Source: Candidatus Uhrbacteria bacterium RIFCSPLOWO2_01_FULL_47_17 | GTDB lineage: Bacteria > Patescibacteriota > Patescibacteriia > UBA9934 > GWF2-40-263 | Direction of reading: 5' to 3' | DNA: 64,000 bases | NCBI GenBank assembly: GCA_001791305.1 | Contig: MGEI01000005.1 | Span: 340,208-404,207 of the forward strand | Shown here: positions 13,882 through 63,111 of the stretch, one piece after another | How the letters are laid out: each line of letters begins with the position of its first letter | Numbering within the stretch: position 1 is the stretch's first letter | The notes under the pieces: model-generated | Database searches by the model: none | What the model was told of the DNA's origin: nothing | The model's input: the letters and a program-made list of their open reading frames with translations, nothing else | Translations under genes and position numbers: made by a program

Positions 13882-14355
13882 TTATTCTGCGGGTGTTTCT
13901 GTTGGCGCTGGAGCTTCTGCTGGTTTTTCTGCCTCAGCCTTTGCGGCCTCAGCTTCTGCCTTTGCAGCTTCAGCAGCGGCTTTCTTTGCTTCTTCTTCCG
14001 CAAGTTTAGCAGCTTCTGCCTTTGCTTTCGCTGCGTCTTCTTTGGCCTTTTTATCAGCTAAATCCTTCTCCAAGTCCGCTTTTTTGCGGTCACTAATGTG
14101 AGATTTTGCGATTTTCTTTCCTTCTACGAATTTATGGTCGAGAAAGAGGTTCCAAACGGTCGGGGAGCATTGTGCGCCTTTTTCCAGCCAATGTTTGACC
14201 TGATCTGCAGCCACAACCAATGCTTTGGTTCGTGGGTTGTAGTGACCAAGGATTTCAATGGATTTTGCCCATGGATCGCGTGTTTTTGGTTGAACAATCA
14301 CACGAAAAAGAGGCGCTTTTTTCTTTCCAACGCGGGAAAGGCGAATAGTGAGCAT
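13882..14355 (-). CDS. rpsP: 30S ribosomal protein S16 with a long Lys/Ala/Glu-rich C-terminal extension
   Basis: N-terminus MLTIRLSRVGKKKAPLFRVIV; 157 aa, of which about 75 aa form a low-complexity KAEAA tail. Confidence 0.9.
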   Translation of the reverse strand: MLTIRLSRVGKKKAPLFRVIVQPKTRDPWAKSIEILGHYNPRTKALVVAADQVKHWLEKGAQCSPTVWNLFLDHKFVEGKKIAKSHISDRKKADLEKDLADKKAKEDAAKAKAEAAKLAEEEAKKAAAEAAKAEAEAAKAEAEKPAEAPAPTETPAE

Positions 14356-14470
14356 AGGGGAGGGGAAAGTGAAAGAGTGAAAAAGTGGAAGAGTGATGGA
14401 AGGGGCTTTGCTTTATATAAAAAGACAAATACCTTCACTTTTTGACTCTTTGACTTTTTGACTTTGTTTT
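14356..14470. repeat. GTGA-rich palindromic repeat element (copy 1 of 4), upstream of rpsP
   Basis: Arms gtgaaagagtgaaaaagtggaagagtgatggaagg and ccttcactttttgactctttgacttttt flank an AT-rich core. The same family occurs at 34595, 46310 and 55755. Confidence 0.55.
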
Positions 14471-14619
14471 AAATTCTTCAAAACGGCTAGATACACCATT
14501 TCTTCGAGGTCTCAGGTCATTTTTGAGCGTGATGACGTTGTCGGAAGAATAAGGGAACGAGAGTGAAAAGTCAAGGATTCAAATAGTGCCCATTTTAGGC
14601 TATTTTTTAGCTAAAACCC

Positions 14620-14655
14620 TTGACAAAAAGTCCAAAATGTGATATATTAAGGACG
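14620..14655 (+). promoter_or_regulatory. Sigma70-like promoter (TTGACA, 17 nt, TATATT) followed by a roughly 150-nt leader with a terminator-like hairpin
   Basis: ttgacaaaaagtccaaaatgtgatatatt, with a downstream hairpin aaccaatgatt...aatcattggttttttt at about 14775-14815. Confidence 0.35.
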
Positions 14656-15178
14656 TAAAAATCTTTACAATTATGGGGAGAGAGCTGCGCTATCCAGTCC
14701 CATTTTGATAGCAAATTCAAGGTATTGCCCGAGTCACATCGTGGCCGTATTTTTGAGAACCAATGATTGGGTATTTCTCTCGTTTGAAATAAGTAATCAT
14801 TGGTTTTTTTGTTCATCACCATTCGGGAGGCAGCGTGCACAAGCTCATTCTGGATCTGAAGAAGTTCTGGTTCCTGTGGAACAAGGTCCAGCCGGATTGC
14901 CGGTCGACCCTCCTCGAGGAGTTCCTGTTCAACCCTCGTCGATTCGAAATGCGGTTCCAAGCGGAACTCAACTTCCAACTCGAATACAGCCGTCGTTGGC
15001 GGTAAGGAGAGCGACATGACGTTCAAGCAAACGCTGTTCGTGAACGTCGGTCTCGCGGTTCTCATGATGGGTGCGCTCGCGTATGCGGCCATCAATCCGT
15101 GCCGGGAGCCGTCGACGTCGAGGAAGTAACCCCACAAAAACAACGCTCGGCGAATTCGCGGAGCAAGAGGAAAAGGAA

Positions 15179-15418
15179 ATGTCTCAACGGAAAGATGAGC
15201 AGCGTGCGTATGTAGAACGGAAAGCGTTCGCAGAAACCTTGACACGGCAATTTGCCGGTAAAAAGGTACTGAAGATTCGTTTCGATGATATGCAGCAATG
15301 CACGATTGTATTCGATGACGGATCAACGCTGAAGATCGCAAGCAGCCTGTCTTCGTATGACGGTCACCACGAACTGGAAGTCCAAGACCAAAATATCCGT
15401 TACGATTATTGGGAATAG
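15179..15418 (+). CDS. Small hypothetical protein (80 aa), last of three small ORFs in a high-GC stretch
   Basis: RBS aaaaggaa before the ATG; internal start of listed ORF 15071..15418. Two shorter upstream ORFs (about 14836-15006 with a GTG start, and 15016-15129) also have Shine-Dalgarno sequences. Confidence 0.35.
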   Translation: MSQRKDEQRAYVERKAFAETLTRQFAGKKVLKIRFDDMQQCTIVFDDGSTLKIASSLSSYDGHHELEVQDQNIRYDYWE

Positions 15419-15619
15419 GTCAACATCCTCTCACTTAGCCTCGCGCGAATGAGAGACCTGCTCTTTGAAACATTTTCGATCTGCCCGCAGCTGCTTCACA
15501 GCTGCGGGACTCGACTCTGAACATCACTTTGCGTCTCTCGCGAATGTGGTGGTCGGACTGAGTCTGGTTAGTGAGTTTTTTCAACAACATGATCGGCATG
15601 TCCGGTCGGAGGTTCTTTC

Positions 15620-16786
15620 ATGAAGTACAGCATCCTGTTCCTGGTGTCCTTGTTCCTTCTCGGTGCGTGCGGGACGTTCGAAGAATCGAATGCTCCGGCG
15701 CCTGCGACCGAAGAGGATTTGGAAATGGCCGAGTTTCTCGACTGCTCGGAAGTCGGTGACTGTGACGATTCGTTTCCGGACATCAACATCACGATCGAAC
15801 TCGATTGCGAGTCGGTCGATTCGAAGAAAAAAGGCGACATCTGCGTGTCGGTCTGCAACGAGTGCCAGAGCGGCTCCGACTGCATCGACACGGATGCCGA
15901 CTGGTATCCGGACACGTGCGTGACGCCCGTCGAAGCTCCGCCTGCGCGTGAACCGCCGCCGGTTTTGGTGGCTTGCGGTGGGACATTTTTTCCGCTCGGT
16001 GAACTGTGCAGTGGTGCATCCGGTGTGTGTCAGGAAAACGGCACACGCGAATGTTTCGAAGGCAAGCTCATCTGCTCGACGGATCCAAAGGGAAGCGCAT
16101 CGCTCGCGACCAATGAAGTCTGCGACGGTAAGGACAACGATTGCGACGGAGAGACGGATGAAGGTACGTCGCTCGTTTGGTACTTTCCGGACGTGGACGG
16201 TGATGGCTACGGCACAAGCGGCAATGCGCTTCTGAAGCCGGTCGAAGTCTGCACGAATGGATTGATTCCATCCGGCTACGTCTACAAAAGCGGTGACTGC
16301 GATGACAGCTACGATACAATCTACCCTGGCAAGAATTGTCCGTTTCCTGACAGTAACAGTGCATCCAAGTTGATCGTGATCCTCAAGTCATCGAAGAAGA
16401 CAAATATGGTTGGGTACGAAGATGACCCTACAACGTTCTACTTCAAGATTGCAAAGACTCTCGAGGAAGTCGCCGGCAAGTGGAGCAGTGATTATTTTCA
16501 GTTCGATACAGAAAGCGGATTCGCCGAGCTTGCTTTGAACGCGACGGATAAGTATGTCCGGTTCAACACGATCGACGCACCTGGGTGGTGGTCGACGTGC
16601 GGTGGGGCGTTCAACGCATTCAACGCAATTGATGGGGGATTCGCGCTCAATCCTAAGCTCAAGGTTTATCAGCTCAAGAACGGAGCATGGATCAACATGA
16701 CGAGCAAGGTGGAGATGTACGAGCAACCCAACGACGCAAGCAAGACCGACAGCGGTGACCTGTGCTCGGCTCTGCTCAAGCTTTAG
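15620..16786 (+). CDS. Cys-rich lipoprotein with MopE-like putative metal-binding repeats (DGxDNDCDGxxDE), paralogue 1
   Basis: Signal peptide plus lipobox LLGAC, repeated CDGKDNDCDGETDEG motifs, and a C-terminal domain homologous to that of the 16926 gene. Confidence 0.6.
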   Translation: MKYSILFLVSLFLLGACGTFEESNAPAPATEEDLEMAEFLDCSEVGDCDDSFPDINITIELDCESVDSKKKGDICVSVCNECQSGSDCIDTDADWYPDTCVTPVEAPPAREPPPVLVACGGTFFPLGELCSGASGVCQENGTRECFEGKLICSTDPKGSASLATNEVCDGKDNDCDGETDEGTSLVWYFPDVDGDGYGTSGNALLKPVEVCTNGLIPSGYVYKSGDCDDSYDTIYPGKNCPFPDSNSASKLIVILKSSKKTNMVGYEDDPTTFYFKIAKTLEEVAGKWSSDYFQFDTESGFAELALNATDKYVRFNTIDAPGWWSTCGGAFNAFNAIDGGFALNPKLKVYQLKNGAWINMTSKVEMYEQPNDASKTDSGDLCSALLKL

Positions 16787-16799
16787 TTCCTTTCAACTC

Positions 16800-16881
16800 G
16801 TTCGACCAACTTCGGAAATTCCGAAGCTGGTCGAACCTTTTTCAGAGACATCAATCAAAGTGATTGAGTGATCTGAGAAAG
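16800..16881 (+). repeat. Conserved intergenic leader unit, copy 1 (variant): palindrome, CTTTTTCAGAGA box, second hairpin
   Basis: gttcgaccaacttcggaaattccgaagctggtcgaac followed by ctttttcagaga, catcaatcaaagtgattgagtgatctgagaaag. Confidence 0.5.
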
Positions 16882-16894
16882 TTTCTGGGTTCCT

Positions 16895-16923
16895 GTTATA
16901 GGCGGGGTCCCTTGACCCCGCGG
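16895..16923. repeat. GC-rich hairpin element gttataggcggggtcccttgaccccgc (copy 1 of 3), in the 5'UTR of the lipoprotein gene
   Basis: Near-identical copies at 24106 (upstream of smc) and 22607 (inside smc). Confidence 0.5.
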
Positions 16924-16925
16924 AG

Positions 16926-18275
16926 GTGTTTTCCATGAAGTACGGAATTTCGTTTCTGGTGTCCTTGTTCCTGCTCGCGGCGTGCGAGACGACCAATGTG
17001 TACCCGACCGAGGTGGTCGAGGTACCGAAGGCGGAAACCGCGGTGAGTTGCAGTGCGGTCGATCCGACTCAGATCGAGATCAAACTCGACTGTGCGTCGG
17101 TCGGCGCGTTCCAGCACGGCGATTCTTGCATCAGCAACTGTACGCTCTGCAGCTCGCAAGAGATCTGCATCGATACGGACGGCGACAAGTGGAAGGACAC
17201 GTGCGTGCAAGGTGAGACGCCTCTTGAAACCCCGCCGGCTCACGAGCCGACGGCGACAACGGAAGCTCCGCCCGCTCGCGAACCGCCCGTCGAAGTTCAG
17301 TGCGGCGGTACGTTCGGCATGATCGGAACTCCGTGCAGTGGCGCGTTCGGCGCATGTGCGGAAAACGGCGTACTCGAGTGTGCTGACGGCGAATGGGAAT
17401 GTTCGACGGACGTGAAGGGAAGTGAATCTCTTGCGACTGTCGAACTGTGCGACGGCAAGGACAACGATTGCGACGGGGAGACGGATGAAGACTACACGTC
17501 TGACCTTGGCAAGCAGTGCTTCGGCCTGAATCAGTGCGGTCTTGGCCCGGGCGTCGTGGTTTGCAACAAGAAAGGAGAAATCGCGCAGTTGTCCTGCACG
17601 GTCGGAACCCCGTCGACGGCATATGCAACTCTGGATTCGCCGGAGCTCTGCGATGACATCGACAACAACTGCGACGGAAAGATCGACGAAGGCTGCGCGC
17701 TGAAAGTCGATCCATCCGAAGAAGACAATGACAAGGACAGTTACATGGCTCTGAATGACTGCGACGACAACGACGCGTTGATCCATCCCGGTCTCGACAA
17801 CTGCCCGACATTCCAAGGTCTGACCAAGGACAGTTACAAGCTGGTTCTGGTCTGGGGCGGAGCGGAAAACAGTCCGTACACCGCCAACGCGTATTTCAAG
17901 TTCGGAAAGAGTGCGGTCGAGTTGCAGTTCAGCTCGAAAGTGTTCTTCGACAACACGTGGGAAGTGAAAAGTTTCCCGCAATACAATTACACGGCGACGG
18001 ATCTGGAAAAGCAGTCGTCGCACGTCGCGTTCAACGTGTTCGGATATCCGGGTTACTGGTATCTGTGTTCGGGGAACGTCGTCGATACGATTTCATTCGC
18101 GCTCTCGAAGGAGCTTCCGAAGGTGTACCTCATCTCGGGCGGCGTCTGGAAGGAGGTGGGCAGCAAGCTTGAAGTGCTCGCAGCAAATGATCTCGAGGTC
18201 GTCAAAGGACCGATTTACGGCGGCGACTACAACAAGAGCAAGCCGGCCTACTGTGCAGCCATGCTGCAACTGTAA
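16926..18275 (+). CDS. Cys-rich lipoprotein with MopE-like metal-binding repeats, paralogue 2
   Basis: Signal peptide plus lipobox LLAAC, CDGKDNDCDGETDED and CDDIDNNCDGKIDEGC motifs, and a C-terminal domain paralogous to the 15620 gene. Confidence 0.6.
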   Translation: MFSMKYGISFLVSLFLLAACETTNVYPTEVVEVPKAETAVSCSAVDPTQIEIKLDCASVGAFQHGDSCISNCTLCSSQEICIDTDGDKWKDTCVQGETPLETPPAHEPTATTEAPPAREPPVEVQCGGTFGMIGTPCSGAFGACAENGVLECADGEWECSTDVKGSESLATVELCDGKDNDCDGETDEDYTSDLGKQCFGLNQCGLGPGVVVCNKKGEIAQLSCTVGTPSTAYATLDSPELCDDIDNNCDGKIDEGCALKVDPSEEDNDKDSYMALNDCDDNDALIHPGLDNCPTFQGLTKDSYKLVLVWGGAENSPYTANAYFKFGKSAVELQFSSKVFFDNTWEVKSFPQYNYTATDLEKQSSHVAFNVFGYPGYWYLCSGNVVDTISFALSKELPKVYLISGGVWKEVGSKLEVLAANDLEVVKGPIYGGDYNKSKPAYCAAMLQL

Positions 18276-18290
18276 GCTCCTTCATCAACT

Positions 18291-18377
18291 GTTCGACCCG
18301 CTTCCTGGAAGTTCCAGAAGTCGGTCGAACCTTTTCCAGAGATCCCGATCGAAGGTCGATCGAGGGATCTGAGAATG
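18291..18377 (+). repeat. Conserved intergenic leader unit, copy 2 (hairpin type A)
   Basis: Palindrome gttcgacccgcttcctggaagttccagaagtcggtcgaac, box cttttccagaga, hairpin tcccgatcgaaggtcgatcgaggga, then tctgagaatg. SD aaaggaggg follows. Confidence 0.6.
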
Positions 18378-18403
18378 TTTTGTTCAACAAAGGAGGGTGT
18401 CCC

Positions 18404-18850
18404 ATGGGTTCAACGGCAACGTCGGCGGTTGTGGTTCAACTGGAACATGAGATCGAGACCACAAAAGATCACCTTGACCAACTCAATGAGCGTTTGCGCG
18501 AGCAGACGACGGTCGGGTGGCTGGCGATCGTCAATTTCATGTTCGGCGGCAGGATTCAGTACGTCCGTATTTCGGATCGGGCCAACAATCCGTTCGATCA
18601 CTTCGACTCCTCGTCGAAACCTCACCGACAGCGCAGCTATGTGAAGGGCTGTTCCGACATTGATCAGGTGCGGGTGCTCTTTAGCGGTTGGAACGAACCT
18701 GAGTTTGAGATGAAGCTCGAAGACGGCCGCTCGCGGATTCCGGGATCGTTTGTTTTCCTAACCAACACGAACTTGGATGCGCTGACCCGGAAGGCTGAAG
18801 CTGTCCTTTCGAGTGAACGGCGCAACAAGAGTTCTGCGCTCGGTCAATAA
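18404..18850 (+). CDS. Small hypothetical protein (149 aa), cassette gene 1
   Basis: Start at M9 of the listed ORF, 6 nt after SD aaaggaggg. No recognisable motif. Confidence 0.45.
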   Translation: MGSTATSAVVVQLEHEIETTKDHLDQLNERLREQTTVGWLAIVNFMFGGRIQYVRISDRANNPFDHFDSSSKPHRQRSYVKGCSDIDQVRVLFSGWNEPEFEMKLEDGRSRIPGSFVFLTNTNLDALTRKAEAVLSSERRNKSSALGQ

Positions 18851-18853
18851 TCT

Positions 18854-18940
18854 GTTCGACCCGCTTCCTGGAAGTTTCAGAAGTTGGTCGAACCTTTTCC
18901 AGAGATCCCGATCGAAGGTCGATCGAGGGATCTGCGAAAG
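18854..18940 (+). repeat. Conserved intergenic leader unit, copy 3 (hairpin type A)
   Basis: Nearly identical to copy 2 (gttcgacccgcttcctggaagtttcagaagttggtcgaac, cttttccagaga, tcccgatcgaaggtcgatcgaggga, tctgcgaaag). Confidence 0.6.
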
Positions 18941-18982
18941 GTAATAGTGCCCGCGCAGGAATGCGTCGGCTTGGAGAGGAAG

Positions 18983-19339
18983 ATGATGACCATGCAAGAC
19001 AAAGCGGCGATGGCTGCGTTCGAGACGATTGTCGCGCGCGGGCTTGTGGGGCGTGAGGAACTGAAGCGGTGGATCGTCGATACGCACCTGGATTGGCGCA
19101 AGACTCACTTCAAGATCTTGTTTCGGAACGCCAACAACTCGCGGCGCATCGAGTGCGAAGTGCTCAACCGGCTCGAACCGCTTTCGGATGGTGGTGTGAA
19201 GATGTCGGTCGAGATCACGATGATCACGGCCGGCGCAAGCTCGCAGGTTCCGGAAAGTCCGTGGACCGATGTGCTCTTCGACGCGGACAGGCCGCGCACG
19301 GTTCGAATGAGCAGCATGCTTCGTAAGCGTGCGGCGTAA
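18983..19339 (+). CDS. Small hypothetical protein (about 118 aa), cassette gene 2
   Basis: Start at the MMTMQDK methionines, preceded by ggagaggaag. Weak similarity to cassette gene 1 (RNANN/DRANN region). Confidence 0.4.
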   Translation: MMTMQDKAAMAAFETIVARGLVGREELKRWIVDTHLDWRKTHFKILFRNANNSRRIECEVLNRLEPLSDGGVKMSVEITMITAGASSQVPESPWTDVLFDADRPRTVRMSSMLRKRAA

Positions 19340-19559
19340 AACAAGGAGTTCCGTGGAGACTGTCATCAAATGGTTTCCCGCTGCGTGTTTCTTCTTGCTT
19401 GTGCTCGTGATGCTCTTCATCACGGCGCATGTGGGAATGTGGATGTGGCCTGGCATGATCAAAACGTGGCATGGTGTCGCGTATGTGGTCACGCATCCGG
19501 CGGAAGTTGTGGTGGGCTTGCTCATCGCATTCTGTCTGCTCGCAAACGCACTCAAGTAG
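19329..19559 (+). CDS. Small membrane protein with two transmembrane helices (about 70 aa), cassette gene 3
   Basis: Two hydrophobic helices. A possible GTG start after aaggag sits at about 19353. Low confidence because an alternative overlapping frame exists (19370..19564). Confidence 0.3.
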   Translation: MRRKTRSSVETVIKWFPAACFFLLVLVMLFITAHVGMWMWPGMIKTWHGVAYVVTHPAEVVVGLLIAFCLLANALK

Positions 19560-19577
19560 TTTGAATACAGGAGGAAC

Positions 19578-19787
19578 ATGCAGATTCAGTTTCGACTGAT
19601 CAACGGACACATCGTTCGCGCGTCCTTCGAAAACAAACCTGAACTCGCCGGATTCGGCGATACGGAGGGGCAAGCGATTGCGGCACTTCTGAAAAAGGAA
19701 AAGGCTCGCAACCTTGAGCTCCAAGCGCTTTACTTCTTGTTACGCAGTTTGCTCGGTTCACATCAGGACGGGTTCCTGGTGAACTGA
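19578..19787 (+). CDS. Small hypothetical protein (69 aa), cassette gene 4
   Basis: Strong SD acaggagg 5 nt before the ATG. Confidence 0.45.
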   Translation: MQIQFRLINGHIVRASFENKPELAGFGDTEGQAIAALLKKEKARNLELQALYFLLRSLLGSHQDGFLVN

Positions 19788-19809
19788 GATTCGTTCTTTT
19801 CACAACTTT

Positions 19810-19880
19810 CCACGTCGTCTCGAAACGACGTGGCTTTTCCAGAGACTCGCATCGACAGGCGATGCGGTGATCTGCGAAAG
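19810..19880 (+). repeat. Conserved intergenic leader unit, copy 4 (hairpin type B)
   Basis: ccacgtcgtctcgaaacgacgtgg, cttttccagaga, ctcgcatcgacaggcgatgcggtg, atctgcgaaag. Confidence 0.6.
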
Positions 19881-19939
19881 TGTTCTGGTGTCTGCACATT
19901 CAATTGCCCACACTAAAACGTGTCGGCTTGGAGATAGGC

Positions 19940-20227
19940 ATGTTGTTTTTCTTTTTGTTCGATCTGGTGTGTCTCTACATCACGGGCAATACGACCATCG
20001 ATCTTTGGGCTGCCAAACTGGTTGTCGTGTTTGGTGGAACCAACCAGGTGGTGAGCATCAACTTCTTGTTCGGTTCGGTGAACATCACAGAGGAAAATTT
20101 GACGCTGTGGATGTGGATCTCAACCGCAATTACCGCTTGGATCCTTTGGGATTTGTTCAAACAGGCGCGTCACTTTTGGCGATGGTTGATGAAACAATCA
20201 CGCGACGAAGCTCAAGTAAAATCGTAG
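19940..20227 (+). CDS. Small membrane protein (about 95 aa), cassette gene 5
   Basis: Start MLFFFLFDLV after ggagatagg; multiple transmembrane segments. Confidence 0.45.
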   Translation: MLFFFLFDLVCLYITGNTTIDLWAAKLVVVFGGTNQVVSINFLFGSVNITEENLTLWMWISTAITAWILWDLFKQARHFWRWLMKQSRDEAQVKS

Positions 20228-20237
20228 ACCTCAACTT

Positions 20238-20323
20238 GTTCGACCTGCTTCGGAAATTCCGGAGCCGGTCGAACCTTTTCCAGAGACTCGCATCGAACAG
20301 GTTGATGTGGTGATCTGCGAACG
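20238..20323 (+). repeat. Conserved intergenic leader unit, copy 5 (hairpin type B variant)
   Basis: gttcgacctgcttcggaaattccggagccggtcgaac, cttttccagaga, ctcgcatcgaacaggttgatgtggtg, atctgcgaacg, then SD taaggagg. Confidence 0.6.
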
Positions 20324-20345
20324 TTTCTCGTAAGGAGGTTTATAC

Positions 20346-20708
20346 ATGGGAATGACCTTCTGGTTTTTCTTCAGCCTGACCGCCCTTTCGGGTCTTTCGT
20401 TGTTTGTCGACGAATGGCAAAACAATGATCGACTTCGGGCGTTTTTCATCAAAGAGTGGAAGGCGTTTGTTTATTCCTCGTTCTTTCACAAATGTGCGTT
20501 TGCCCTAACAGTGGCTCTCGCCATTGATCACTACAACGAAGTGTTGCCCGTGATCTCGCTCACAAGTTACGTTTGGTCCAGCTGGTTCGTTTCTCGGATC
20601 TTGAATCCAGAACTTGGCGATGACGCAACACAAGACATGTACTCGTCATACACACCCTCACTTCCAGATCCGCTTTCAAACAACCCCCATCCTCATCATT
20701 GGAGTTGA
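20346..20708 (+). CDS. Small membrane protein (120 aa), cassette gene 6
   Basis: SD taaggagg 7 nt upstream; 3-4 transmembrane helices. Confidence 0.5.
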   Translation: MGMTFWFFFSLTALSGLSLFVDEWQNNDRLRAFFIKEWKAFVYSSFFHKCAFALTVALAIDHYNEVLPVISLTSYVWSSWFVSRILNPELGDDATQDMYSSYTPSLPDPLSNNPHPHHWS

Positions 20709-20736
20709 TGCGGTTGCGTAGCGGTTCACATTCCCT

Positions 20737-20800
20737 GGCGATGTCTCATCGCCCTTTTCCAGAGACTCGCATCGATAGGCGATGCGGAGATCTGCGGAAG
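20737..20800 (+). repeat. Conserved intergenic leader unit, copy 6 (hairpin type B)
   Basis: ggcgatgtctcatcgcc, cttttccagaga, ctcgcatcgataggcgatgcggag, atctgcggaag, then SD acaggagg. Confidence 0.6.
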
Positions 20801-20816
20801 AAACAGGAGGTAGGAT

Positions 20817-21137
20817 ATGCCCGTTCCAAACGTTTGGGATCTCATTCGGTACATCATGTGCGGACTCTTGATGGGTCTTTTCATAGTCGGCTGCAAAAGG
20901 CCTGTGGAAGAGTCTGCGGGAAAACCTGCGTACATTGCGCAGACGACTTGCTTCAAGCCTCTCAACTTCAAGGAGACCGGGAACCGCGATAATTCGCAAT
21001 GGTGCGAATACATCATTGTGGATCATCCTGAGATTCCGCCCATTTGCTGGGCAGTGGAATATCCCGATTCAACTTCCTCAACCCGGTTCGACATCTCGTG
21101 TGCCGTATTCGAAAAGGTGCAGAAGTTGAGCAAGTAA
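20817..21137 (+). CDS. Small putative lipoprotein (106 aa), cassette gene 7
   Basis: SD aggagg; signal peptide with lipobox LFIVGC; Cys-containing mature part. Confidence 0.5.
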   Translation: MPVPNVWDLIRYIMCGLLMGLFIVGCKRPVEESAGKPAYIAQTTCFKPLNFKETGNRDNSQWCEYIIVDHPEIPPICWAVEYPDSTSSTRFDISCAVFEKVQKLSK

Positions 21138-21160
21138 CGTTCACCAACTGGAGGTCTGAC

Positions 21161-21658
21161 ATGTATTGGTTTCTTCTCGGCTATCTCGTTCTCACGTTCT
21201 TCCTGAACCACATCTGTGCGCAAGTGCATCACGCTCGAGCGTGTGAGCATCCGGTTCGGAAGTCGAACATCGTGCTCGATGTCGTGACGTTCATTGCCGT
21301 TCTGTTACGTCTGCCGTTCTACGCGCTCGGCGTCGTGCTCTACAACGCTTGTTGCCTGGGTACGGTTGTCGCAGCGATGACGGACGTGATTCCAGAACAC
21401 GCAACCACGCTCTGGATCTACGTACTCGCCGATAACCTCGGCTACGCGTCTTATGCGATGCGCGAGTTCCTCGTGCTTCAATTCACGTTTCTCTCCCAGT
21501 ACGCAAAGAGCGACTGGTCGTTCACCTATTACGACTACCGCCTCGGCAACGGCAAACTGTTCAGCTTCTACGCGCAGCCGCAACACGGCCATCGCGAGCA
21601 CTACGTCGTAGGTTCGCTTTATGGGCGAATCAAAGAGGAAGAGCAGAGGCATGAATAA
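21161..21658 (+). CDS. Membrane protein (about 165 aa), cassette gene 8
   Basis: Start MYWFLLGYLV after ctggagg (M40 of the listed ORF); 4-5 transmembrane helices. Confidence 0.5.
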   Translation: MYWFLLGYLVLTFFLNHICAQVHHARACEHPVRKSNIVLDVVTFIAVLLRLPFYALGVVLYNACCLGTVVAAMTDVIPEHATTLWIYVLADNLGYASYAMREFLVLQFTFLSQYAKSDWSFTYYDYRLGNGKLFSFYAQPQHGHREHYVVGSLYGRIKEEEQRHE

Positions 21659-21667
21659 TTTTTCTTA

Positions 21668-21697
21668 CCAGACGTAAAATGTCTGGTCTTTTTTTTG
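21668..21697 (+). terminator. Rho-independent terminator closing the small-gene array
   Basis: accagacgtaaaatgtctggt followed by a T-run of 8 or more. Confidence 0.55.
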
Positions 21698-21811
21698 TGG
21701 TAACGCGCTCTGAACCTCCCCCAGCCCCTCCTTGGCAGGAGGGGTGAACGAGCTCTGTAACGTTTCGGAAAACGTTTACCTCCCCTGCCAAGGGGAGGCC
21801 GGGAGGGGTTC

Positions 21812-24103
21812 TTACCGTCTCGCCGTTCCGCCACTCGCCATCTCTTCGAGCTTCACGCTCAACAAATTACTGATGCCGTCATCTCCCATTGTCACGCCGT
21901 ACAAGATGTCCGCCTTTTCCATGGTTGCACGGTTGTGAGTCACAACAATGAACTGTGAGTTCTTCGACAAGTCATCGAGGATAGATGCAAATCGAAGCGT
22001 GTTTGATTCGTCGAGCGCCGCGTCAACCTCGTCGAGCACCACGAACGGCGCTGGATTCACGGCCATGATCGCGGAGAGAAGAGCGATCGAGGTAAGTGCG
22101 CGTTCTCCACCAGAGAGCAAGTTCAACGATTTTAATTTTTTTCCAGGTGGCGTTGCTTGAATATCAATTCCGACGACGCCGTCGTCGTACGCAGCGATGC
22201 GTTCGCGGATCGCATCCGTTTTATCACGCTCCGCTTCGCCCGTGTCTTCGAAGACGCGTTCCGGTGTGACTTCCGTCTCCTCATCGGCTTTCAAATCTTC
22301 TTTCGATAATTTGATGAGCGAACAGGATCCACCGTTGAACAGAATTTTGAAATATTTTTCGAACTCTTTGTTGATCAGAGCAAAGACTTTTTTGGATTGC
22401 GTAGCAATATCTTCGTCGAGTTCGATGACAATCTTCTCTGTCGCGTTGATCGCACTTCGTAAATCTTTTAACTGCTCATCGAGGAACTCGAAACGTTTCT
22501 TCGTATCTTCAAACTCGACCACAATCTCCGGATCGATTCCGCCGATGAGTTCGATTTTGTATCGCAAGCGCTGAATTTCAGGGTAGAGCACATCGGTATC
22601 TATCTTGTTATGGGTGGGGTCCCCAGACCCCGCCAGTGTCTGCCTGTTTGTCCTGGCTTTCACAGCAAAATTCCCCATCGCTTCATCCATTTCACGATTC
22701 AAATTTTTTTGTCGTTCATCAATGCGCGCTGCTTCGATTTGGATCGAGTTGCGTTGATTTTCGAGCAAGTGAATTTGCGTTTGCTTCTCGCGCAACTCGC
22801 GTTGCATATCGATGAGCTCGGTGCGCACTTCTTTTTCTTTTTGTGCGTACGCATCGATCTCGCGCTCTTGCTCGACGAGTTCTGCTTTGATGCGTTGTTC
22901 CTCAATCGCGAGCGAAGCTTTTTTCTCGAGGAGCGCAGGATCTGGTTTGATGTCTTCCGGATTTGGTTTGCGCAAACGTTTGTTGAGTCCGACGACTTTG
23001 TCGAGCACGCCGTCGATTGCGGTGTGAAGTGCGTCGATATCTTTCAGTGATTTTAAATTCTTAAGAAGGACATCCAGTCCGTCGATTTCCTCGACAATCT
23101 TCAACAAGGGAAGTGGCGCCCAGTTTGATTGCGCGCGCACCTTTGTCAGTTCGATTTCTTTTTCAACCTGAAACTGCGCCTGACGACACGCGTCACGCTC
23201 ACGTTGTTTCTCGCGGTACACTTTTTGCAAAGCTGCGAGTCCTGCATCTTCTCCCGTCTCCGAATTCTCAACCGCTTTCGTTCGAGTCTCGATCACCTCG
23301 AGTTCGGAGCGCTTCTCGAGAATGCGCGCATCGATTTCTGTGAACTGTGATTTGATGCCTGCGAGTTCGTCGATCAATTTCCACCAAAGTGTTCCGTAGT
23401 ACGACGTTTCCATTCCGCGCAACTCTCTTTCGACCTCCTCACGTTCCGAGAGTCTCGAAACTTGTCGCTTGAGCGAACGGAGGCGCGGTTCAATTTCCTG
23501 TACGAGCATTTCTACGTCCGTTAAATTTTCGAGTGTGCGCTTCAATTTCAAAATCGCTTCATGGCGTTTGAGCTGAAGCGGCTTTACTCCCGTCGCATCG
23601 TCGAAGAAACTTTTGCGTTCTTCGGGAGTCGACACGAGAATGTGATCGATCATCCCTTGGCCGATCACAGAGTAGGAACGTTGACCAACGTTTGCTTGTG
23701 CGAGGAGGAGTTGAATGTCCGCGAGGCGGGCACTTCCGTCGTTTAAAAGATATTCCGAGTTTCCGTCACGATAGAGGCGTCGGGTGATGGTGACCTCCGA
23801 ATAATCGATTGGCATCATCTTGTCCGAGTTGTCGAGTGTGATCGAAACTTCCGCGAAGCCACTTCGACCTCGACCTTCCGAGCCAGAAAAAATCACATCC
23901 TCGGATTTTTTTCCGCGAAGAAGTTTCATGCTTTGCTCACCCAAGACCCAGCGAATGGCGTCCGCAAGGTTGGATTTCCCCGAACCGTTTGGACCAACGA
24001 TCGATGTTAAAGGATAGCGATCCGCGGCTGGAGGAAGAAAGGATAGCGAGGTTTTTTTTGCAAAGGTTTTGAATCCTTGGACGGAGAGTTTCGACAGGTA
24101 CAT
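21812..24103 (-). CDS. smc: Chromosome segregation protein SMC, short form (763 aa) with no obvious hinge domain
   Basis: N-terminus MYLSKLSVQGFKTFAKK...GPNGSGKSNLADAIRWVLGEQS (Walker A); C-terminus LSGGERALTSIALLSA...VLDEVDAALD (signature plus Walker B). Confidence 0.8.
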   Translation of the reverse strand: MYLSKLSVQGFKTFAKKTSLSFLPPAADRYPLTSIVGPNGSGKSNLADAIRWVLGEQSMKLLRGKKSEDVIFSGSEGRGRSGFAEVSITLDNSDKMMPIDYSEVTITRRLYRDGNSEYLLNDGSARLADIQLLLAQANVGQRSYSVIGQGMIDHILVSTPEERKSFFDDATGVKPLQLKRHEAILKLKRTLENLTDVEMLVQEIEPRLRSLKRQVSRLSEREEVERELRGMETSYYGTLWWKLIDELAGIKSQFTEIDARILEKRSELEVIETRTKAVENSETGEDAGLAALQKVYREKQRERDACRQAQFQVEKEIELTKVRAQSNWAPLPLLKIVEEIDGLDVLLKNLKSLKDIDALHTAIDGVLDKVVGLNKRLRKPNPEDIKPDPALLEKKASLAIEEQRIKAELVEQEREIDAYAQKEKEVRTELIDMQRELREKQTQIHLLENQRNSIQIEAARIDERQKNLNREMDEAMGNFAVKARTNRQTLAGSGDPTHNKIDTDVLYPEIQRLRYKIELIGGIDPEIVVEFEDTKKRFEFLDEQLKDLRSAINATEKIVIELDEDIATQSKKVFALINKEFEKYFKILFNGGSCSLIKLSKEDLKADEETEVTPERVFEDTGEAERDKTDAIRERIAAYDDGVVGIDIQATPPGKKLKSLNLLSGGERALTSIALLSAIMAVNPAPFVVLDEVDAALDESNTLRFASILDDLSKNSQFIVVTHNRATMEKADILYGVTMGDDGISNLLSVKLEEMASGGTARR
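22607..22636. repeat. GC-rich hairpin element (copy 2 of 3), in-frame inside the smc coding sequence
   Basis: gttatgggtggggtccccagaccccgccag encodes LAGSGDPTHNKI within SMC. Related copies lie in the 5'UTRs at 16895 and 24106. Confidence 0.45.
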
Positions 24104-24105
24104 AC

Positions 24106-24135
24106 GTTATAGGCGGGGTCCCCTGACCTCGCGCG
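24106..24135. repeat. GC-rich hairpin element (copy 3 of 3), immediately upstream of the smc start
   Basis: gttataggcggggtcccctgacctcgcgcg. Confidence 0.5.
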
Positions 24136-57620: not shown

Positions 57621-60125
57621 ATGGCACAAAAAAAACAACATTCTGAACCGGAAGAACCCGTTCAAGATATCACGACAAATGGGATTGGACGCATTGAGCG
57701 CCGAAACATTGCCGATGAAATGCAAACCGCATATCTCGACTACGCCATGTCCGTCATTGTTGGTCGTGCGCTTCCGGATATTCGCGATGGACTGAAACCA
57801 GTTCACCGCCGCATTTTGTATTCCATGTGGCAGACGGGACTCCGATCAAGTGCAAAGTTCAAAAAGTGTGCGTCTGTGGTTGGAGATGTACTCGGAAAGT
57901 ATCACCCACACGGAGATTCCGCTGTGTATGACTCGCTCGTGCGTATGGCGCAAGATTTTTCGATGCGCTATCCACTGATCCGCGGACAAGGGAACTTTGG
58001 ATCTCTCGATGGCGACCCGGCTGCGGCGTATCGATATACAGAAGCAAAGCTTGAAACCATTTCGGAAGAATTGCTTGTTGATATCGAGAAGGAGACGGTC
58101 GACTTCATTCCAAACTTTGATGGCACACACAAAGAACCAAAAGTGTTGCCTGCAAAACTTCCAAACTTGCTCATCAACGGAACAGTTGGAATCGCGGTTG
58201 GAATGGCGTCGAATATCCCTCCGCACAACCTCGGAGAAGTTTGTGATGCGGTACTCGCATTGATTCGCGACAAGGATACATCGATCGAGGATCTGTCAGA
58301 GATCGTTAAGGGTCCAGATTTTCCAACGGGTGGAATTGCGTACAGTAATGCGGACATCAAAACCGCCCTCGCAACCGGTCGTGGGGGGGTGGTCGTTCGA
58401 GGCAAAACGGATATTGTGGAAGATAAGAAAGGCAATTTCGCCATTATCATCACAGAAATTCCGTACCAAGTGAACAAAGCAAACTTGCTTATTCGCATTG
58501 CACAGAATGTTCGCGATAAGAAGATCGAAGGGATTAAAGATTTGCGCGACGAATCAACATCCGCCGGTGTTCGTGTTGTTGTTGAGTTAAAAAAAGATGC
58601 GTATCCAAAGAAAGTGTTGAATCGTTTGTATCAAACAACACAACTTCAGGAATCCACACACTACAACATGCTCGCACTTGTGGAGGGTGGAATTTTGCCG
58701 CGCGTACTCAACCTCAAGATGATTCTTGAGGAGTATCTCAAACATCGCCAAGAAGTGGTGAAGCGCCGCACACAGTTTGAACTTACGCGCGCGCTTGATC
58801 GTGCACATATCCTCGAAGGATTGCGCATTGCGCTCGCGCAGATCGACAAGATTATTGCGTGTATCAAGAAATCAAAAGACAAAGAAGAAGCGCGATTGAA
58901 CTTGATCAAACAATTTAAACTTTCCGAGAGACAAGCGGTCGCGATTCTCGACATGCGTTTGCAACAGCTTGCGAACCTAGAGACGTTGCGCATCGAACAA
59001 GAATATGCGGAAAAGATGGCGCTCATCAAAGAGCTTGAGTCTATTCTTGCAAGCGCAAAAAAGATGATGATGGTGATTGCGGAAGAAGTGGAAGGATTGA
59101 AACTCAAGTACGCGTCCCCTCGAAGAACTCAAATCATCAAGTCGGGAATTAAAGAATTCTCGATCGAAGACGTCGTTCCAGACACGGAAACGGTCGTAAT
59201 GATCACAAAAGCCGGATACATCAAGCGCATCGACCCAGACACATTCCGCACACAAAAGCGTGGAGGGAAGGGGGTCGTCGGCATGGCGTCCAAAGATGAG
59301 GATGAGGTCGAGCAAGTATTCTCGACAACCACACACAAAGATCTTCTGTTCTTCACGAGTAGAGGTCGTGTGTTCCAACTTAAAGCTTACGATGTTCCAG
59401 AGGCGTCGCGCATTGCGAAAGGCCAAGCGCTCGTAAACTTCCTCCAACTCGCGCCAGGTGAATCGGTATCCGCGTCGTTGTCGATGGACGAGCTCGCGGA
59501 CTCGAAATATCTTCTCATGGTGACAAACAAGGGAACGATCAAGAAAACAGATTTGTCCGAGTATGATTCCGTTCGCAAGTCGGGGTTGATCTCGATCAAA
59601 CTCCGAGACGGCGACAACCTCCAATGGGTTCGTCCAACGTCCGGAAAAGATCAGATCATGCTCGTGACATCCGGTGGACAAGCGGTTCGCTTCGAAGAAA
59701 AAGGCGTGCGCCCAATGGGTCGTGTCGCCTCTGGTGTTCGAGGAATCAAGCTCAAGGGTGATGATTCTGTGGTTGGAATGGGAATCATTCCAGGCTCCTC
59801 ATCGAAGAAACCGGGAGAGAAAGAGATTTTGGTTGTGATGGAAAACGGATACGGAAAACGCTCGGACCTTATCGAGTATAAGGTCCAAGGACGTGGCGGA
59901 TCCGGAATTAAAACCGCAAATATCAGCAAAAAGACAGGAAAAATCGTCGCGGCGCATATCGTCGATACGAAAGACGAGCGTGATATGTTCATTATTTCCG
60001 GCGCGGGTCAGGTGATCCGATCTGAACTGAAGTCCGTCTCTGTCCTCGGTCGCGCAACCCAAGGAGTTCGCATTATGCGATTCAAGAAGCCAGATGACAC
60101 GGTCGCGAGTGCTGCCCTCATTTAG
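57621..60125 (+). CDS. gyrA: DNA gyrase subunit A
   Basis: [26 protein letters not shown], active-site Tyr region [10 protein letters not shown], and C-terminal beta-pinwheel repeats; 834 aa. Confidence 0.95.
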
Positions 60126-60163
60126 CCAAAAAGACTGTGGTTTTTGCCACAGTCTTTTGATTT
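60123..60163 (+). repeat. 41-bp direct repeat, left copy (includes the gyrA stop and a perfect terminator hairpin)
   Basis: tagccaaaaagactgtggtttttgccacagtcttttgattt, identical to 63349-63389. Confidence 0.8.
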
Positions 60164-60177
60164 TTCTAACAAATCAT

Positions 60178-60206
60178 TGACATTTTTGGGATTTTATGTT
60201 ATTATC
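60178..60206 (+). promoter_or_regulatory. Sigma70-like promoter for the DGR target gene (TTGACA, 17 nt, TATTAT)
   Basis: ttgacatttttgggattttatgttattat. Confidence 0.4.
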
Positions 60207-60333
60207 TTCCGTCATTTGAATTTCGCACAAGGTGATTTTCGGTGACATGCAGTGTCTACTTTTTGTTCGCTCCGAGCCTCGCGACGGAATTTCCGTCACA
60301 ACCGCTTGATCGGAACAAAATGCGGAGGAAGAT

Positions 60334-60993
60334 ATGGCAAAGCAGTCTTGGAGAATCAAGCTCGAGCAATGGCTCGCGGCAAATGGTGATGAAGGCATGT
60401 CCGGAGTAGTGGATCATCTTGCGATTTTGACTCGCGCGACGAGTCTTGTTCGTAAGCCCGGATTCAAAAAAGCTCTGGAGAAATTTTTGGACGAATGGGC
60501 CGGTCTTCCCGAACAAAAGGCCGATCCGATCCTCCGTCGCCTCTTTGAAGACGAAACGATCACCATCGCTCCGTGCGACGGTTCCCGGTACGTCGCCAAA
60601 GAAAAAGGCGTGTTCAAAGCGTACATCGAAGGTCTCTTCGCAAGTTGGGGTCTCGACAAGCCTGGACAGTCCACGGTTGCCGCGAATGTCTCCGTCTACG
60701 AGATGATCCGGGACGCGACCTTCGCTCAGATGTTCGGCTCTCTCGGGCCAGATCTCGACAAACTGTGTCTCTCACAGCATCAGATCGTCGAGTTCTGCGA
60801 AACGCATTCGGCACGTCTTCGGCAAGAAGGCTACGCCACATTCTTTCTTTTTAAGGAAGGCGATCAGTTCTACGTTGCGGGCGTGCGTGTCCACGCGGGC
60901 GGCCTGAGCGTGTACGTCCGCCGTCTCGAGCGCGACGATGTCTGGTATGGCGAGTTTCGTCATCGTCTCGTAGTCCCGCAACTGACCGTTTGA
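60334..60993 (+). CDS. DGR variable (target) protein with the C-terminal VR; no signal peptide
   Basis: The C-terminal 38 codons are matched by the TR with adenine-specific differences. Residues at the variable positions are G, R, H, G, S, Y, R, R, D, Y, F. Confidence 0.8.
   Translation: MAKQSWRIKLEQWLAANGDEGMSGVVDHLAILTRATSLVRKPGFKKALEKFLDEWAGLPEQKADPILRRLFEDETITIAPCDGSRYVAKEKGVFKAYIEGLFASWGLDKPGQSTVAANVSVYEMIRDATFAQMFGSLGPDLDKLCLSQHQIVEFCETHSARLRQEGYATFFLFKEGDQFYVAGVRVHAGGLSVYVRRLERDDVWYGEFRHRLVVPQLTV
60865..60978 (+). repeat. DGR variable repeat (VR), 114 nt
   Basis: Aligned with the TR at 61294-61407 there are 16 mismatches, and every one falls at a TR adenine. Confidence 0.85.
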
Positions 60994-61057
60994 AACTTAT
61001 TCGGATGACACTTTGTTTCTTTGTCCCTTTGACTCTTTTGAGTCCGGGGGATTTTTT

Positions 61058-61066
61058 TGTATAATG
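61058..61066 (+). promoter_or_regulatory. Extended -10 promoter element (TGTATAAT) positioned to transcribe the TR-containing RNA
   Basis: tgtataatg lies 25 nt downstream of the target-gene terminator hairpin gactcttttgagtc and about 230 nt upstream of the TR. Confidence 0.35.
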
Positions 61067-61293
61067 CATTTGCAATCGTGCGATATCTTGTGGCCAAGGC
61101 TACAAGGTCACGATTGTTTGGAATCGTTGTTGAGAATTTTGTTGGCTACGGCTTGCAAAAGAGTGATAATGATTCTGACAAACAAAAACTTTTCAGTTGG
61201 TGCGGTGCGCTTGTGGACTTCTTCGTCCCAAATAAAATTCAGCCGAATTTCTCGTGCACGATAAATCGGCAGTGATCTGGATGGCCCATCGTA

Positions 61294-61407
61294 CAATTCT
61301 ACGTTGCGAACGTGAATGTCAACGCGGACGGCCTGAACGTGAACGTCAACCGTCTCGAGAACGACAATGTCTGGAATGGCGAGTATCGTCATCGTCTCGT
61401 AGTCCCG
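61294..61407 (+). repeat. DGR template repeat (TR), 114 nt, in the same orientation as the VR
   Basis: The adenine-rich template consists of AAC/AAT codons at the variable positions. Confidence 0.85.
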
Positions 61408-61419
61408 AAAATGAAATGT

Positions 61420-61446
61420 TCTCCTCCCTATTGTTTGGGAGGAGTT
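61420..61446. terminator. Bidirectional terminator hairpin between the TR and the convergent avd gene
   Basis: ctcctccctattgtttgggaggag, followed by ttttcttttc on the + strand. The avd stop codon lies in its loop. Confidence 0.45.
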
Positions 61447-61769
61447 TTCTTTTCAATATCTTTTTTCCATCCGCCAAGCATTCTTCCAATTTCATCTAAA
61501 TCAACGGAAAGCGCAGTATATTTATCATTCGGCAGGCATTTGTTTTCCCACGCAATTTGTAAAAAGAATTTCACTCCGTCCAGTTTTGAAATACAGATGG
61601 TGAGTCGATTCATTTTTTGCTCACCGGAAAGATATTGCGAAACAAAAATTTGCTCAAGCATTTCGAGAAAGTATCCCTCAATCTTTCCACCAAGATTATG
61701 ACGCGATGTTTTTGGAAAATCTGTAAGCAATTTAAACCAATTTGTATAGGCACTCCTCGTTTTTGTCAT
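61428..61769 (-). CDS. avd: Avd-like accessory variability determinant (four-helix-bundle / 23S rRNA-IVS protein family), encoded on the strand opposite to the TR and RT
   Basis: FPKTSRHNLGGKIEGYFLEMLEQ and LDEIGRMLGGW match the Avd/IVS four-helix-bundle family consensus; 113 aa. Confidence 0.7.
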   Translation of the reverse strand: MTKTRSAYTNWFKLLTDFPKTSRHNLGGKIEGYFLEMLEQIFVSQYLSGEQKMNRLTICISKLDGVKFFLQIAWENKCLPNDKYTALSVDLDEIGRMLGGWKKDIEKKTPPKQ

Positions 61770-61824
61770 GACCGAAGGAGTTCGGGGGGGGGGTGAGAAT
61801 ATTAGACATATTCATTGAGCGTTT

Positions 61825-62829: not shown

Positions 62830-62862
62830 AGTAGAAAAGTAAGAATGTAAGAAATAACTCCT

Positions 62863-63105: not shown

Positions 63106-63111
63106 CTTTCT

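Follow-up and report, generated by a model that had tools for sequence, protein, structure and literature searches.

A covarying two-hairpin element between the genes of a variable small-protein array in Candidatus Uhrbacteria

On the plus strand of a 64-kb stretch of DNA from Candidatus Uhrbacteria bacterium RIFCSPLOWO2_01_FULL_47_17 (contig MGEI01000005.1; hereafter the window), positions 14600-21700 hold one block of 12 open reading frames (ORFs), and in this block lie six copies of a structured element of ~90 nt that we call E. An earlier note, made from the sequence alone, had pointed out six intergenic units of the same build and had left it open whether they represent a functional RNA or a recombination site. 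All six are indeed found on the plus strand at the place described, and E is a new element family, for which we favour a role at the RNA level while regarding one at the DNA level as possible.

The block comprises two tiny ORFs, two paralogous lipoproteins and eight small ORFs, most of the latter with one to four transmembrane (TM) segments or a lipobox (Table 1). For the lipoproteins and the eight small ORFs, this agrees with the description given in the earlier note. Both lipoproteins carry a CxDxDNDCDGxxDE (MopE) motif, beyond which Pfam gives nothing for the array proteins, and NCBIfam has no family for the four that were scanned. The array gene shared most widely, family H2, has only nine relatives among 5.8 billion proteins, and an AlphaFold2 model of its product (pLDDT 84) has no significant fold match in the PDB. 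Five of the eight small ORFs directly follow a copy of E; the remaining three, which had also been thought to be preceded by a unit, are reached through spacers of 13-23 nt that hold a Shine-Dalgarno (SD) sequence only (junctions 19339/19353, 19559/19578 and 21137/21161).

The array sits between rpsP (minus strand) and smc (minus strand)/DHH (plus strand), and it does so in most genomes; in a distant relative, L077 (L numbers denote related loci), it is found in another genomic context. At its head stands a sigma-70-type promoter that is perfectly conserved in an alignment of six Uhrbacteria loci, four of which also keep the leader RNA behind it. This leader has the 5′ hairpin GGGGAGAGAGCUGYGCUAUCCAGUCCCA, shows one compensatory AU/GC pair in its terminator stem and has no match in Rfam; it is a candidate attenuator, riboswitch or small RNA gating the whole array. 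At the other end, the array closes with a canonical intrinsic terminator, and the arrays of L029 and L033 likewise finish in T7-8 terminators. The L029 array also opens with a TM peptide homologous to the one that opens the array in the window. A promoter scan found nothing inside the array comparable to the head promoter, and no internal promoter of consensus grade. The operon thus appears to be transcribed as a single unit from 14620 to 21695.

Table 1. Coordinates of the array and of its E copies in the window
Feature	Position	Strand	Description	Support
Sigma-70-type promoter, array head	14620-14648	+	TTGACA, 17 nt, TATATT, with TG	Score 11/12; kept in 6 Uhrbacteria loci (alignment)
Leader RNA	14655-14815	+	~150 nt; intrinsic terminator at its end (stem 14758-14805, then T7)	
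Two small ORFs opening the operon	15016-15418	+	15016-15129 (37 aa, TM peptide); 15179-15418 (79 aa)	SD sequences present
Lipoprotein A	15620-16786	+	388 aa, lipobox, MopE motif	
E1	16787-16881	+	Pyrimidine box0 16787-16799; hairpin 1 16800-16836; hairpin 2 16837-16881 (box CTTTTTCAGAGA)	61.3 bits; z = -8.2
Lipoprotein B	16935-18275	+	446 aa, paralogue of lipoprotein A	
E2	18276-18377	+	Hairpin 1 18291-18330; hairpin 2 18331-18377 (apex type A)	70.3 bits
ORF, family H25	18404-18850	+	148 aa; single-gene module between near-identical E2 and E3	
E3	18851-18940	+	Hairpin 1 18854-18893; hairpin 2 18894-18940 (apex type A)	71.6 bits
Three-gene module, no element between genes	18983-19787	+	18983-19339 (118 aa, H2); 19353-19559 (68 aa, TM); 19578-19787 (69 aa)	
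E4	19788-19880	+	box0 GTTCTTTTCACAAC; hairpin 1 19810-19833; hairpin 2 19834-19880 (apex type B)	67.6 bits
ORF, singleton	19940-20227	+	95 aa (TM)	
E5	20228-20323	+	Hairpin 1 20238-20274; hairpin 2 20275-20323 (apex type B with a G·U pair)	60.5 bits
ORF, singleton	20346-20708	+	120 aa (TM)	
E6	20737-20800	+	Hairpin 1 20737-20753; hairpin 2 20754-20800 (apex type B)	64.8 bits
Last module	20817-21658	+	20817-21137 (106 aa lipoprotein, H24); 21161-21658 (165 aa, TM, H6)	
Canonical intrinsic terminator closing the array	21667-21695	+	9-bp stem, then C and T8	Terminator scan

Structure, covariation and distribution of E

Each copy of E consists of a variable hairpin 1 that abuts a hairpin 2, and the six copies between 16787 and 20800 share one orientation. 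Hairpin 2 begins with the box CTTTTCCAGAGA, which is exact at 18331, 18894, 19834, 20275 and 20754 and has one mismatch at 16837. The window holds no further site with zero or one mismatch, and with a chance expectation for any given 12-mer of ~0.008 in 64 kb on both strands, the recurrence of the box goes far beyond chance. A second box, GATCTGCGAA (GATCTGnGAA), follows 21-25 nt past the first, exact in three units and with one mismatch in the other three. These flanks, which had been taken as invariant boxes in their own right, are conserved but not separate, since CTTTTCCAGAGA and GATCTGnGAAAG are mutually complementary and together make up the base helix of hairpin 2, in which CUUUUCCAGA pairs with UCUGnGAAAG around one bulged or mismatched position.

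Read from bottom to top, hairpin 2 has a base of 9-10 bp, an internal loop (GA/GA) that is symmetric and conserved, and a variable apex of 7-8 bp, in all ~20-22 stacked base pairs or pair equivalents. The two apex types that had been distinguished hold for E2 and E3 (type A) and for E4, E5 and E6 (type B), but E1 carries a third (CATCAATCAAAGTGATTGAGT). A kink-turn at the GA/GA loop was considered and rejected: there is no 3-nt bulge, and the tandem G·A is symmetric within a continuous helix.

Hairpin 1 has the form GTTCGACC...GGTCGAAC in four of the six units (E1, E2, E3 and E5), as the earlier note had it, while that of E4 reads CCACGTCG...CGACGTGG and that of E6 GGCGATG...CATCGCC. The palindromes are near-perfect, not perfect as had been stated, with an A·C mismatch in E1 and wobble pairs in E2 and E3. 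The 3′ end of hairpin 1 lies 0-2 nt ahead of the box, which is what makes the two hairpins abut. Nearly all copies have a GC-rich hairpin 1 (mean ΔG -17 kcal/mol) just before C and four to five U, the tail in the window being C-UUUU-CC (U5 in E1). None of the six units is picked up by a terminator scan, which does call the T8 terminator that closes the array. All six units fold as two hairpins, with z scores of -3.7 to -8.2 and none of 200 shuffles folding equally well, and E2 and E3 are 95% identical across 92 nt.

Across copies, hairpin 1 keeps a tight spacing from the upstream stop codon (median 19 nt, mostly 3-28 nt), whereas the next start codon follows the element at a loose distance (16-97 nt, median 49), which makes the element intercistronic and anchored to the upstream gene; the term "leader", applied to it before, is therefore only partly apt. 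In 29 of 56 copies the gap between stop codon and hairpin 1 contains a pyrimidine-rich box0 (GTTCYTT..CAACT), which in some minimum-energy folds pairs with the downstream SD; that it serves as an anti-SD sequence is speculation. Copies of hairpin 1 accumulate in tandem in some elements, and the first E of two arrays lacks either hairpin 1 or the U-run. Some units carry extra modules downstream, namely a GCCCGCG..CGTCGGC hairpin just ahead of the SD or a GGGGTCCCYWGACCCC hairpin.

The first of these modules was also seen in its own right: as GCCCGCG-N7-CGTCGGC it occurs at 18948-18977 and 19905-19934 and in three copies in L032, directly 5′ of the SD (TTGGAGA) in several array genes, whether or not E is present upstream. 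Separately, we looked for promoters within E. No sigma-70-like site was found, and ECF (extracytoplasmic function)-type (GAAC...CGT/TCTGA) and sigma-54-type candidates picked out by eye were discarded, their positions falling in variable sequence or in one class of hairpin 1 only.

Conservation of the structure is evident from compensatory change. In a MAFFT alignment of 41 copies, all eight pairs of the hairpin 2 apex are altered on both sides, bearing out the covariation that had been noticed among the six copies; 94% of cells are paired against 31-50% with slid partners, and the observed score is reached by none of 500 shuffles, although the copies are phylogenetically related and shuffle-based statistics overstate their independence. 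The result is unchanged on 68 distinct copies. The base helix is nearly invariant, with one pair changed from AU to GC in four copies and, in the most distant copy, CCAGA/UCUG replaced by CUAGA/UCUA. In the long class of hairpin 1, 7 of 10 outer pairs are altered on both sides (for example, GTTCGA..TCGAAC to GCTCAA..TTGAGC), and 92.6% of cells are paired against 22-43% with slid partners; the other classes are unrelated in sequence, yet palindromic and at the same position, 0-2 nt before the box. The shared flanking genes of these genomes are ~70-85% identical at the DNA level where compared. As far as such alignments can tell, the structure is under purifying selection, as indicated by compensatory change around a core that stays invariant from genome to genome.

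The structure also has a polarity. On the coding strand, G·U outnumbers A·C by 39:7 in hairpin 1 and by 38:19 in the hairpin 2 apex, and hairpin 2 is more stable on the plus strand (Wilcoxon p = 6e-4), figures that the relatedness of the copies makes indicative and not exact probabilities.

A covariance model built on hairpin 2 and run with filters off returns six matches in the window (60-72 bits), all in the array, with the next best at 11.7 bits. A functional motif had been supposed to occur beyond this locus as well, and it does: the family counts ~85 copies, spread over at least 14 arrays in related Uhrbacteria, and every copy lies inside an array, in the same orientation as the genes. 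Scores of true copies run from 30 to 73 bits, and of the 69 that were aligned only two fall below 42 bits; chance pattern matches score 19-29 bits. In an exact-pattern scan, multi-copy matches were confined to Candidatus Uhrbacteria genomes and related metagenome contigs, whereas unrelated genomes gave single chance matches, and on a contig of 339 kb every pattern match fell within two adjacent 8 kb blocks; more arrays were reached via homologues of two array proteins. The non-array flanks of L029, L075 and L077 contain no covariance-model match above noise.

A phage origin was considered and rejected. The strict pattern had no match in IMG/VR, and a relaxed one gave 29 single matches, none above 26 bits by the covariance model, which we attribute to chance. 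Rfam 15, searched over the whole window at gathering thresholds, yields a tRNA at 44834 as its sole match, and at an E-value of ≤1 over 14300-21900 nothing overlaps any copy of E. In the literature on integrons of the candidate phyla radiation (CPR), Uhrbacteria arrays, the box sequences and structured RNAs of CPR bacteria, we found no earlier description of the element.

One array carries an unexpected label. Contig CAYHDY010000009.1 (L008/L011), listed as "uncultured Gammaproteobacteria", holds at least 10 copies of E in an array that is linked to rpsP and whose genes have homologues in Uhrbacteria arrays; the label of this metagenome-assembled genome, or its binning, is probably wrong.

Gene content of related arrays

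Gene families were defined by all-against-all BLASTP, using simple ORF calls for the related loci, in which small genes may be missed or mis-started. The comparison of homologous arrays that had been proposed shows that they differ in gene content between species: many array genes are singletons, and those that are shared are ordered differently from one species to the next. Among closer relatives (L032, L033 and JAPLZK), the arrays are mostly colinear and differ by insertion or deletion of whole modules. Across E, 12 of 48 informative pairs keep their gene adjacency, compared with 8 of 17 pairs that have no E between them, a difference that is suggestive but not significant and comes from pairs that are not independent. 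The similarity of hairpin 1 and of the apex follows homology of the flanking genes as a weak trend (0.66 and 0.62, respectively, against a background of 0.59). Before H2, the same apex is found in three arrays together with different hairpin 1 sequences. Neighbouring copies of E within an array tend to be more alike, examples being E2/E3 in the window and five copies in L024.

Two loci, L005 and L022, are 99.8% identical over 1616 nt and then diverge totally 7 nt past GATCTGAGAA, a break that may reflect chimeric assembly at a repeat. By its proteins, the window is assigned to Candidatus Uhrbacteria bacterium RIFCSPLOWO2_02_FULL_48_18 (Patescibacteria group, Parcubacteria group, Candidatus Uhriibacteriota), and the strain has been assembled from at least six ENA and JGI samples. 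Contigs from several samples that encode the exact proteins of the window are 99.94-100% identical and represent one strain, among whose contigs no ongoing shuffling is seen.

Several independent assemblies of the same strain (L067, L068, L073 and L074) break in or just after the lipoprotein A/E1 region, corresponding to 16170-16924 of the window. Assemblies thus seem to be fragmented at this place by the paralogous lipoprotein genes or the repeats, which advises caution with breakpoints taken from contig ends.

An RNA element or a DNA site

We favour, with confidence and doubt in about equal measure, the view that E is an intercistronic RNA element which splits one polycistronic mRNA into gene modules. 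The asymmetry of G·U pairs towards the sense strand, the single promoter, the restriction of terminators to the array end and the lack of a recombinase in the 64 kb together argue for such a role at the RNA level. Hairpin 1 would then protect the 3′ end of the upstream module and act, at most, as a leaky terminator, whereas hairpin 2 would offer a double-stranded site for recognition and cleavage by an RNase III-like endonuclease or, alternatively, a site for a dedicated RNA-binding protein. Both the cleavage and the protein partner are what we infer from the structure. A cut at hairpin 2 would uncouple adjacent modules, leaving each with its own stability and translation. As a side effect, repeats of ~90 nt between modules would supply homology for the deletion, duplication and exchange of modules, and the cassette-like variability of the arrays would arise because the repeated E sequence gives homology between relatives.

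The polycistronic mRNA of phage T7 is known for RNase III sites between its genes (R0.3, R1.1 and others). Like E, these are repeated irregular hairpins of ~20 bp between cistrons, with a lower stem, an internal loop and an upper stem; their sequence is partly conserved among sites, and they leave a stable hairpin at the 3′ end of the upstream message, as E would do. Hairpin 2 is comparable in size and shape to known RNase III substrates such as T7 R1.1, from which its own cleavage is predicted by analogy. Unlike the T7 sites, E has an additional, variable hairpin 1, an invariant base helix and a GA/GA loop, and it belongs to a chromosomal CPR operon. In the selective processing and stabilisation of RNA (SRPS), stem-loops past stop codons within operons determine how stable the parts of a polycistronic mRNA are relative to one another (PMC10667835). 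The stem-loops of E also stand just past stop codons inside an operon, but SRPS hairpins are idiosyncratic to each operon, whereas E is a single standard element whose conserved core recurs at nearly every boundary between the modules of a variable array. With the T7 and SRPS hairpins E shares its structural type, an irregular two-turn hairpin with an internal loop, placed between cistrons that are presumably co-transcribed.

Several points weigh against this view. Processing and co-transcription are both deduced from the sequence, and no RNase gene was identified in the window. E is limited to one operon per genome, which the site of a housekeeping RNase need not be, and a dedicated partner or local amplification must therefore be assumed; in addition, the invariant base helix and GA/GA loop suggest sequence-specific recognition, which is atypical of RNase III. 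G·T pairs form in single-stranded DNA too, so that the strand bias is compatible with a DNA site on the top strand, and tandem copies of hairpin 1 fit a recombination site as well. Module content, moreover, varies between species and often does so at E. An example is given by H25, which is located between lipoprotein B (H1) and H2 in the window and between H3 and H10 in L032, with corresponding empty sites in L033 and JAPLZK. In both genomes H25 is flanked on each side by a copy of the local hairpin 1, and in the window by a whole E. At its junctions hairpin 1 remains with the upstream gene and the apex with the downstream gene, which places these junctions in the invariant box between the hairpins. 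Breakpoints at E make a role at the DNA level possible.

The foremost alternative, which we judge unlikely, casts E as a DNA recombination site bounding mobile gene cassettes, in an integron-like array without a linked integrase. The crossover would fall in the invariant box between the hairpins and involve either a folded top strand or a putative recombinase encoded elsewhere. A site of this kind would account for the movement of H25 with its flanking hairpin 1 copies and empty sites, for the varying gene order and the lower retention of adjacency across E, for the arrays that combine one apex before H2 with differing hairpin 1, and for the point, just after GATCTGAGAA, at which L005 and L022 part. 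Each genome has a single co-oriented array of small orphan ORFs, many of them singletons, and hairpin 2 resembles an integron attC site in its layout of conserved base, unpaired centre and variable top. The likeness extends to integrons and to clusters of attC sites lacking integron integrases (CALIN) more generally, in which tandem co-oriented small orphan ORFs carry repeats just 3′ of the ORFs, structure is kept over sequence, and a single chromosomal locus varies in content between relatives.

In sequence and polarity, however, E departs from attC. The cores RYYYAAC/GTTRRRY are absent, in line with what the earlier note had said of attC: hairpin 2 ends in CTTTTCCAGA and TCTGnGAAAG, and the copies of hairpin 1 that read GTTCGAC...GTCGAAC have GTT and AAC in inverted order and a pyrimidine at position 4. 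Whereas attC is used as the bottom strand, both the wobble pairs of E and the stability of its hairpin 2 favour the coding strand. E further differs in having two hairpins, and its array in having its own promoter, leader and terminal terminator and no intI in the window. A hairpin 1 with a T-run right after the stop codon, together with a canonical terminator at the array end only, is a hallmark of RNA. The search for a recombinase that had been proposed was negative for the window, where a Pfam scan of called ORFs of at least 100 aa turned up neither a Phage_integrase nor a resolvase or transposase, no search having covered the rest of the genome; likewise, no integrase, resolvase or transposase is listed among the called genes around L029 and L075. 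The comparative data count against such a site as well. The difference in adjacency is small, hairpin 1 and the apex track flanking-gene homology weakly, no ongoing shuffling is seen among same-strain contigs, the L005/L022 break may be chimeric, and hybrid elements are explained by ordinary homologous recombination in the conserved box.

A further system invites comparison here, the recombinase-associated acquired interbacterial defence clusters (rAID-1) of Bacteroidales, which are long arrays of small genes with repetitive intergenic sequences "reminiscent of integrons" (bioRxiv 10.1101/471110). What defines these clusters is a XerD-family recombinase heading the array, together with immunity-gene homology (bioRxiv 10.1101/471110). 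The small envelope proteins of the E array would be plausible immunity factors, but the window has no recombinase, and the array proteins show no homology to immunity genes by Pfam or, for four of them, by NCBIfam.

Hairpin 1 with its CUUUU could instead be a weak intrinsic terminator that grades expression along the operon, E being mainly transcriptional in function; this we hold to be doubtful and place after a recombination site. Hairpin 2 would in that case tune read-through co-transcriptionally, for example as a signal that modifies RNA polymerase or causes antitermination, like HK022 put, or as a block to Rho loading. The stable GC-rich hairpin directly ahead of C and U4-5 in nearly all copies agrees with such a function, the array-end terminator has the same layout of stem, C and T-run (albeit with T8), and the first E of two arrays dispenses with hairpin 1 or the U-run where termination would be counter-productive. 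An intrinsic terminator, however, has a hairpin followed by ~5-8 U at the end of a unit, whereas the U-tract of E stops after four residues and continues with CC, and the scan passes over all six units. The U-tract is also paired within hairpin 2, which gives its conservation another explanation. Hairpin 2 sits downstream of the U-run, that is, of the putative termination point, and we accordingly rejected the idea that it is a classical antiterminator of hairpin 1. The Rfam search returned nothing like put, nut or RAT.

Less probable again is a far-reaching version of the recombination idea, according to which the array is a new kind of CPR cassette acquisition system, integron-like in function, although its sites are unrelated, its strand preference is the opposite one and no integrase lies next to it. 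A cassette would then be ordered as box, hairpin 2, leader, ORF(s) and hairpin 1, and its circularisation would rebuild a full two-hairpin site. The crossover would take place in the invariant CTTTTCC box, through a putative recombinase, perhaps an unlinked one, or through a mechanism acting on single-stranded top-strand DNA.

Very improbable, finally, is a selfish or neutral repeat of the REP/BIME (repetitive extragenic palindrome/bacterial interspersed mosaic element) or MITE (miniature inverted-repeat transposable element) kind that spread locally without host function: the mosaic build (optional box0, several classes of hairpin 1, tandem hairpin 1, optional extra hairpins) and the likeness of neighbouring copies would suit it, but E is not dispersed, keeping to one operon and one orientation, has no terminal inverted repeats, target duplications or transposase, and shows extensive compensatory change around an invariant core, which indicates purifying selection on structure. 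REP/BIME, enterobacterial repetitive intergenic consensus (ERIC) and Correia (NEMIS, Neisseria miniature insertion sequence) elements do resemble E as transcribed, mosaic, palindromic intergenic modules, and they can stabilise upstream mRNA or be cut by RNase III. They are, however, genome-wide near-copies of a master in both orientations, and neither such dispersal nor an associated RAYT (REP-associated tyrosine transposase) or other transposase, nor terminal inverted repeats with target duplications, was found for E. Graded termination and a selfish origin are thus both less well supported than an intercistronic RNA element.

Neighbouring structures and implications

The array contains a second structured intergenic element, E', upstream of lipoprotein A (15422-15565, plus strand), which belongs to a family unrelated to E. 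It is built from a hairpin CTCTCA..TGAGAG, the linker GCTCTTTGAAA and a covarying hairpin with the loop CTTCA, followed by GACTCGACTCTGAACATCAC; 9 of its 18 predicted pairs are altered on both sides among eight copies. E' is also present in L007, L009 and L077 (twice each) and in L075.

A 28-nt hairpin module, GTTATRGGYGGGGTCCCYWGACCCCGC, occurs in the window at 16895-16922, 22607-22634 and 24106-24133, as well as in L011 (three copies), L032 and L033. It stands just upstream of some start codons, while one copy lies within the smc coding sequence on the opposite strand, encoding ..GSGDPTH.., and another in the divergent intergenic region of smc and DHH. A 100-nt inverted repeat (21712-21811), which separates the array terminator from the 3′ end of smc, has 50-nt arms that are 74% complementary and C/G-rich (CCCCTCC/GGAGGGG); a related module, CCACCCCCTAACCCCCTCCTTGTGAAGGAGGGGG, follows some E copies in other arrays. 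Rfam gives sub-threshold microRNA look-alikes for this repeat and for 14352-14469 only, both outside E.

Elsewhere in the window, 60123-63389 holds a diversity-generating retroelement. Its target ORF (60334-60993, 219 aa) has a 121-nt variable repeat at the 3′ end (60865-60985), to which the template repeat at 61294-61414 is 85% identical. Downstream are an ORF of 129 aa (61312-61701) and an RVT_1 reverse transcriptase (61825-62829). The retroelement is bracketed by a perfect 41-nt direct repeat with a terminator-like hairpin (60123-60163 and 63349-63389).

To our knowledge, the CPR bacteria (Patescibacteria) are uncultivated, and next to nothing is known of how their expression is organised or their cell-surface proteins are diversified. 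With the E family, the post-transcriptional punctuation of operons in these bacteria becomes accessible to concrete tests. The family also flags an operon that evolves fast and encodes lineage-specific lipoproteins and small membrane proteins and, within the array, the points of gene gain, loss and movement; we speculate that the array proteins could mediate interaction with hosts or competitors. Should E prove to be a recombination site, it would define an integron-like system with unrelated sites. Should it prove to be an RNA processing site, it would be a natural "standard insulator part" between cistrons, of the kind that synthetic biologists make artificially.

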